A stretch of 64,000 bases of DNA, taken from NCBI RefSeq assembly GCF_052425735.1, contig NC_135760.1:18290001-18354000 (forward strand), written 5' to 3'. Numbering within the stretch: position 1 is the stretch's first letter; every line of letters starts with the position of its first letter. Source of the stretch: Oculina patagonica (Eukaryota). Under the pieces are notes generated by a model. It saw only the letters and a list, made by a program, of their open reading frames with translations. It searched no databases and was not told where the DNA came from. Of this stretch, positions 31,771-32,049 are shown one piece after another. A program made the position numbers and the translations under genes.

Positions 31771-32049
31771 AACTGAAGTTTTCTAGCAGTGTAGCGCGTT
31801 TTATACAACTTTCCTATCCCAAAAGAACTGGGTTCTAGTATTCCCATTGGTCAATCGAGGTGACGTGTACAGAATGAACCAATGAAATCTCATGATCAAT
31901 GTCACCCAAGGTGACGGGATTTTTCCCACAAGGGTAAACTCCCAAGCTGACGGGATTTTCCCCAAGGGAAAAATCCCGACGCACGCGCGTGGAGAATCTT
32001 TCTCGGAATTCTCGGAATTCTAGGAACCCGCGTGTGCTCATTCTCGGAA
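31771..32049 (-). promoter_or_regulatory. Putative pPolB promoter/enhancer: Inr (TCAGTT ~31771-31776), TATAAAA (31799-31805), CCAAT boxes, 4 kB-like sites (31916-31977), 4 STAT/GAS sites (32000-32049)
   Basis: Motifs read directly from the sequence; TATA-Inr spacing is ~25-30 bp on the minus strand, pointing toward pol. Confidence 0.6.

Follow-up and report, generated by a model that had tools for sequence, protein, structure and literature searches.

Maverick element and host factors

The window analyzed in this study, a stretch of 64,000 nucleotides from Oculina patagonica, contains a complete Maverick/Polinton element (polintovirus) of ~21 kb at 25771..46596. Its ends and target duplication, as read from the sequence, comprise AGTAGT termini and a 6-bp duplication, and its terminal inverted repeats (TIRs) are near-identical and about 1.1 to 1.2 kb long. 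Pfam searches returned DNA_pol_B_2 for pPolB, whose open frame spans 1,383 aa, rve+chromo for the integrase (the chromodomain is present), Phospholip_A2_4 for a PLA2-like ORF, and a weak Peptidase_C5 match (E 0.009) for an adenain-like protease. No Pfam match was obtained for the ORFs that, from their position, we take to encode the capsid and the ATPase, nor for several further ORFs of the element. The ORFs at 34139-35053 and 42591-43196 yielded a GRF zinc finger (over the cut-off) and a weak SLATT-like 2TM match.

Both TIRs harbor a tRNA-like gene (26371-26444 on the plus strand and 45783-45856 on the minus strand), which ARAGORN called as tRNA-Gln(CTG); it may represent either a Pol III unit of the VA-RNA-like kind or what is left of a SINE. 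The right-TIR copy also gave an Rfam tRNA match of 36 bits. The segment 25771-26300 and its mirror contain 152-bp repeats, of which the right TIR has one unit more, as well as motifs of the CRE, ETS, octamer, CCAAT, and E-box-like types. Within 26649..26712, also in the TIR, are a single GAS-like site (26649) and a G-rich palindrome whose core is kB-like (26692).

The host genome (529 Mb, with chromosome-scale contigs C1-C14) was searched for the two transcription factors that the motifs described below would call for. It encodes a Rel-homology protein (RHD, 115.7 bits) that is closest to p52/p50. For STAT, a STAT_linker match over the cut-off and a weak STAT_int match 9 kb upstream on the same strand define one locus. 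The STAT_bind profile found no match in the host genome, and a STAT5 match was weak (E 0.02) and ranked under repeat-protein matches. An earlier reading of this DNA, made from the letters only (the sequence-only reading), had stated that cnidarians possess both factors; this host carries a p50/p52-like NF-kB and a STAT recognized by two domain matches at a single locus. A degenerate NF-kB exon fragment (L102, G000:C7:20844313-20844441) is apparently a pseudogene piece.

Spliced polymerase gene and its promoter

pPolB is encoded on the minus strand. Its coding exon (26931..31082) opens at a splice acceptor at 31082, 57 codons ahead of the Met at 30911, and is preceded by intron 2 (31083..31444), exon 2 (31445..31492), intron 1 (31493..31659), and exon 1 (31660..31776), all on the same strand and with GT-AG borders at both introns. 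The likely start of the protein, judged from the sequence, is an ATG in exon 2 that has a good context and shares the pPolB frame. Exon 1 has a predicted initiator, TCAGTT (31776-31771); its own ATG, at 31760, lies in a different frame from pPolB and opens a basic uORF (frame read by hand). A TATAAAA box (31799..31805, minus strand) is located about 30 bp upstream of the predicted initiator, and two CCAAT boxes (31846 and 31879) together with a TGACG half-CRE (31861) occupy 31846..31883.

Contigs from 4 of the 20 listed runs were aligned to 26850-45360. They carry no start site, expression level, or treatment label, and their origin from RNA is read from the GT-AG joints, as no run was recorded as RNA. 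The joint of intron 1 at 31492/31660 (CT..AC) was present in runs X1, X2, and X4 (3 of the 4 runs, from 3 studies), and that of intron 2 at 31082/31445 (31081/31444 as CT..AC, cut +1) in run X1 alone. A variant joint, 31069/31444, lies 12 bases away and was seen in X1 and X4; it is non-canonical in the letters of the window and probably represents another allele. Joints 32189/32379 and 34704/34779, non-canonical and each found in a single contig, were disregarded. All four runs had contigs over the bin containing the motif cluster, and one X10 contig spans the cluster, either as read-through or as DNA.

Since the leader joints splice into the pPolB frame, we assigned the promoter to the polymerase, and the motif cluster adjoins the promoter of a spliced polymerase gene. 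The TATA box and initiator had been described previously as pointing toward pPolB. This is correct insofar as spliced leader exons join the pPolB frame, but the connection is not direct, with two introns and the leader exons intervening.

Composition of the motif cluster

Upstream of this promoter, between 31911 and 32049, lie four kB-like sites, GGGATTTTTCCC at 31916, GGGTAAACTCCC at 31932, GGGATTTTCCCC at 31952, and GGGAAAAATCCC at 31966, and four GAS-like TTCN3GAA sites within 32000..32049, represented by TTCTCGGAA at 32000, 32009, and 32041 and TTCTAGGAA at 32018, three of them arranged head-to-tail and one separate. Each of the eight motifs was recovered at the coordinate that the sequence-only reading had assigned to it, and the measured distance to the TATAAAA box, 111-244 bp, agrees with its figure of ~110-245 bp. 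It described the motifs as matches to consensus sites: all four GAS sites fit TTCN3GAA, and one of the four kB-like sites (31952) fits the kB consensus, GGGRNNYYCC, in its strict form. For counting, we used the looser kB-like pattern GGG-N5/6-CCC, which was picked after the sites had been seen.

The kB-like array (31916..31977) consists of two copies of a palindromic unit of 28-36 bp, in each of which the left arm is the stronger of the two and each of which is preceded by TGACG, and the GAS array is built from a 9-bp tandem unit. None of 5,000 dinucleotide shuffles of 31911-32049, or of the wider segment 31780-32150, reached four kB-like or four GAS sites. Across 31100-33500, 0 of 5,000 shuffles reached five kB-like sites and 38 of 5,000 reached six GAS sites, and every other 150-bp frame of the window contained at most two kB-like and two GAS sites. 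The cluster is thus enriched over shuffled sequence for sites of either type, but the result is inflated: because the sites within each array are tandem copies, and because the kB-like pattern was chosen post hoc, the shuffle statistics overstate the case. Two other identities were considered for the motifs. Alternating nGAAn elements of the heat-shock type (TTCnnGAA, GAAnnTTC) gave 0 matches in 31880-32060, the spacing being wrong, and an EBF/COE reading of the central CCC-NN-GGG was ruled out, as the spacer differs among units.

Turnover of the cluster within the element family

At least 32 elements in the host genome carry the module. This number is a lower bound because only 40 of 61 candidates were scored for it; scoring left out L025, which has no match to the cluster region, as well as L026 and L028-L030, which repeat other loci, and L038 and L039 were without an anchor. 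Among the 29 family copies, whose full-length MCP DNA is 98-100% identical, 27 contain the cluster. In 23 of these 27, the pPolB N-termini are just 34-41% identical to that of the window, and four types of core promoter occur among the 32 carriers (20, 7, 4, and 1). Retention in 27 of 29 copies despite divergent pPolB N-termini and four core types argues that the array was retained while the polymerase allele and the core promoter were swapped. The contrast between capsid DNA at 98-100% and pPolB N-termini down to about 40% in the G000 family amounts to extensive polymerase-allele swapping within one young family.

The kB-like arrays of the 27 copies comprise one, two, three, or four palindromic units in 1, 6, 11, and 9 cases, respectively. 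The GGG..CCC pattern is intact in the left arms of 82/82 units and in the right arms of 66/82. This asymmetry is suggestive only, since five related copies with a broken polymerase account for 13 of the 16 altered right arms; more generally, site counts are non-independent owing to tandem duplication and the close kinship of the copies. A genome-wide count of the paired kB-like site gave 48 occurrences, of which 46 fall inside these elements; the control gave 0.

GAS sites number two to four in each of the 32 carriers. Across six divergent alleles, GAS1, GAS3, and GAS4 are conserved at 0.98, 0.89, and 0.98, compared with 0.47-0.51 for the spacers, and the changes in GAS1 and GAS3 affect the middle three bases alone. 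Conservation of GAS2 is lower (0.58), and one allele has a disrupted GAS4. The stretch 32050-32200, which contains no motif, reaches 0.90-0.91, a level similar to that of the GAS sites.

We also scanned 3.2 kb upstream of pPolB in 60 other cases, 46 of which group in one cluster and one of which is the relative at 69%; in none did 200 bp contain three or more kB-like or three or more GAS sites. The motif cluster was likewise missing from 33 of 33 metagenome relatives, an absence that carries little weight because only about three of them extend to the position. Viral contigs yielded no capsid relative and one motif-pattern match. In the two family copies that do not have the cluster and in one metagenome relative, the pol-side promoter instead contains a G-rich palindrome, whose core is GGGATACCCC, along with a site of the CRE-like type; this palindrome is common to the inner end of the TIR and to the pol promoter of the cluster-less relatives. 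Conservation among related Mavericks, which had been proposed as a check, therefore extends to 27/29 family copies and, for the GAS part, to 5/5 elements of a distant lineage described below, but not to the 60 other regions. A lineage-specific tandem duplication absent from relatives had been named as evidence against regulation. The cluster is a tandem product seen in 0/60 regions elsewhere, yet it is kept across the family, and its GAS part is present in the distant lineage.

These patterns bear on a neutral explanation, according to which a chance motif or two near an ordinary promoter became multiplied through slippage and unequal crossing-over. The tandem origin is evident, 2 of 29 family copies and all 60 other regions do without the cluster, and the family copies are young, as judged by MCP identity of 98-100%. 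A mere by-product is harder to reconcile with intact left arms in 82/82 units, with GAS1 and GAS3 changes confined to middle bases, with retention across promoter swaps and in the distant lineage, and with another kB-like core in a like position in relatives that do not have the cluster. We regard the neutral explanation as improbable and the cluster as a real, probably functional cis-element.

A control region shared with a distant lineage

Five of the carriers (L033-L037) are members of another Maverick lineage, with 40% identity to the window in the integrase, 32-35% in the local pPolB, 21-25% in the capsid (3 of the 5 elements compared), and a different gene order. Nevertheless, all five contain GAS sites, and their identity to the window rises to 80-91% over exon 2 and the 5' part of intron 2 (31302-31469) and to about 76-80% over the stretch from the GAS sites to the repeats. 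In all five, the cassette is situated near the element end. None has a GGG-N5/6-CCC site, the kB-like array being present in diverged form, and three of the five hold a core with a protein-binding microarray (PBM) z of at least 5. By eye, the block 31302-31469 holds a stretch resembling an element terminus, a possible recombination or binding site. In L034 (G000:C1512:67000-74500), the cassette is tandemly duplicated with a 3.7-kb spacing at the end of the second-lineage element.

On the other side of the cluster, a putative rightward first exon (32091..32125, plus strand) has a pyrimidine (TCT-like) initiator at 32091 and a splice donor after 32119, both kept in divergent copies. The GAS sites lie 44-93 bp from this initiator-like motif. 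As judged from the sequence, they are closer to, and move with, the putative rightward promoter, in a region that appears to transfer between lineages as a cassette. Given this proximity and the conserved donor, the GAS sites may mainly serve a rightward non-coding transcript. The contigs of the four runs contained no joint from the rightward donor, which counts neither way. About five 208-bp repeats (32549..33496) travel with the cassette; a structured RNA derived from the 208-bp repeat was ruled out (fold z of -0.29). Contigs of run X10 on 31791-33647 cover mostly the cassette (depth 15-42) and hardly any of the structural genes, representing either a cassette transcript or DNA.

Sharing across lineages also bears on the possibility that the 28-bp palindromes bind an element-encoded protein, as an enhancer or origin, and that their likeness to kB sites is incidental. 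Baculovirus hr sequences provide the model, being dispersed tandem imperfect palindromes of about 28 bp that act as enhancers and are bound by viral IE1. The units studied here are imperfect palindromes of 26-28 bp in one to four tandem copies, the array region folds strongly as DNA (z of -4.9), the site pair is nearly exclusive to these elements (46/48), and several element ORFs without Pfam match could supply a binding protein. Unlike hr, each element has just one such array, and the palindromes lose their symmetry, because right arms decay and left arms stay intact; the inner spacer also varies. Moreover, Maverick replication is probably initiated at the termini through protein priming, and the cassette is common to a lineage whose proteins are 21-40% identical to those of the window, which favors a host reader over an element protein. 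Recognition by an element protein thus appears rather unlikely.

Binding of kB-like sites by cnidarian NF-kB

To relate the kB-like sites to measured binding, we looked up chosen rows of supplementary file 2 of PMC5700166, which were taken without the z distribution and refer to anemone proteins and fixed probe flanks; several 10-mers had no row in the orientation searched. Values are given in the order Aiptasia/Nematostella-Cys/Nematostella-Ser. In these rows, the two cores of site 3 score 5.6/7.7/4.7 (GGGATTTTCC) and 5.7/8.0/7.3 (GGATTTTCCC), and the core shared by sites 1 and 4, GGGATTTTTC, scores 5.4/6.8/5.1, compared with 12.0/12.7/11.4 for the optimal kB site GGGAATTCCC. In the other register, GGATTTTTCC, sites 1 and 4 are not bound (z of -0.9), and site 2 is weak (Aiptasia z of 3.1). 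Two further rows concern relatives of these sites: the family variant GGGATTTCCC, found in 13 units, reaches 9.8/11.4/9.7, and the core of the G-rich palindrome has an Aiptasia z of 6.7. In these published data from other species, the cores of three of the four kB-like sites are bound moderately in vitro by anemone NF-kB (z about 5.5 versus 12 for the optimal site) and that of one weakly. No row of the 11-mer PBM table of PMC3630861 matched any query; the profile shown in this paper is p50/p52-like.

We consider it likely that NF-kB occupies the kB-like sites in the host and, with somewhat less assurance, that STAT occupies the candidate GAS sites. The same host factors could, rather than mediating immune induction, exert cell-type control or repression: a p50-like homodimer might damp the promoter, or STAT and NF-kB might license it in the germ line or in stem cells, the cells in which activity is required if an endogenous element is to spread. 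Repression is a frequent role of p50 homodimers in mammals, STAT is active in stem-cell niches, and the host NF-kB is p50/p52-like. Spliced transcripts in three separate studies are compatible with basal expression. STAT knockdown in Nematostella left the cGAMP response unreduced and antiviral genes were NF-kB-independent (PMC8713801), and Stylophora polintovirus expression grouped by colony rather than by heat treatment (PMC11131425). Against repression, a reporter dependent on kB sites is activated by Nematostella NF-kB when tested in human cells (PMC10329013). The promoter architecture points the same way, as activating enhancers typically look like this, with multiplied sites next to CCAAT and CRE-like elements. 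Taken together, cell-type control or repression is an unlikely alternative.

Candidate host-read enhancer and known viral promoters

The reading that we prefer, by a modest degree of confidence, is that the cluster is an enhancer read by host NF-kB and STAT and located on an exchangeable control cassette. Host p50-like NF-kB dimers would bind the left arms of the kB-like palindromes and host STAT the GAS sites, and, when their pathways are active, the two together would increase the output of the adjoining Pol II promoters. Unequal recombination would grow or shrink the kB-like array between one and four units and could so provide a dosage dial. That NF-kB/STAT signaling raises pol mRNA falls slightly short of an even chance in our judgment, and it is doubtful that such expression would start replication, as the sequence-only reading had suggested. 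A bolder version of the preferred reading is held tentatively: coral Mavericks might swap a roughly 2-kb immune-sensing cassette across lineages with capsids only 21-25% identical, coupling their polymerase to host NF-kB/STAT, so that about thirty proviruses would become active simultaneously during bleaching or infection. The exchanged parts would conceivably be a leader exon, a swappable core promoter, an expandable NF-kB array, a STAT array, and a rightward non-coding unit. If true, this would be the first host-signal trigger for an animal polintovirus, and even without induction it is noteworthy that distant Maverick lineages exchange a non-coding control cassette.

The closest precedent is the ie1 (wsv069) promoter of the shrimp white spot syndrome virus (WSSV), an invertebrate double-stranded DNA virus promoter with NF-kB and STAT sites that are used by host Dorsal, Relish, and STAT (PMC6683665, PMC3171479). 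WSSV differs in being a large exogenous virus whose ie1 encodes a transactivator and has one site of each type, whereas here arrays of both types precede the polymerase of an integrated 21-kb Maverick and binding is predicted. Latent or integrated viruses with repeated kB sites near a TATA promoter are also known, in the form of the HIV-1 LTR and the HCMV major immediate-early enhancer. These viruses are unrelated, their induction is proven, and RelA-type activators exist for them, whereas the present host shows a p50/p52-like protein. The element would thus extend a known viral strategy to a class of viruses not previously associated with it, and the exchangeable nature of its cassette is unusual.

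Among Maverick relatives, the stony-coral polintoviruses belong to the same element class, and their hallmark genes are transcribed (PMC11131425); the words "promoter," "intron," and "recombination" do not occur in the main text of that paper. The endogenous virophage mavirus is likewise an integrated Maverick-related virus and is reactivated on infection. Mavirus depends on giant-virus transcription, and the promoter studied here has TATA/CCAAT elements and spliceosomal introns. The earlier suggestion of a virophage-like response therefore fails, because the promoter is of the spliced host nuclear Pol II type (TATA/Inr/CCAAT, GT-AG introns) and not giant-virus-dependent. A search of the open-access literature found no report of kB or STAT sites in Maverick promoters.

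Particles of animal Mavericks had not been observed as of PMC8097293. With a mapped, spliced polymerase promoter and named candidate host inputs, the hypothesis becomes testable. In bleached Aiptasia, kB-binding activity was about six-fold higher (PMC5700166); this rise of NF-kB activity on bleaching in an anemone model makes a link between coral stress and provirus activity plausible. Natural controls are available in one genome, which offers arrays of one to four units, different core promoters, and two cluster-less family copies. Genome-wide, at least 150 pPolB N-terminal matches were found, many with open frames of >1300 aa, indicating a large Maverick load that is mostly made up of one other family.
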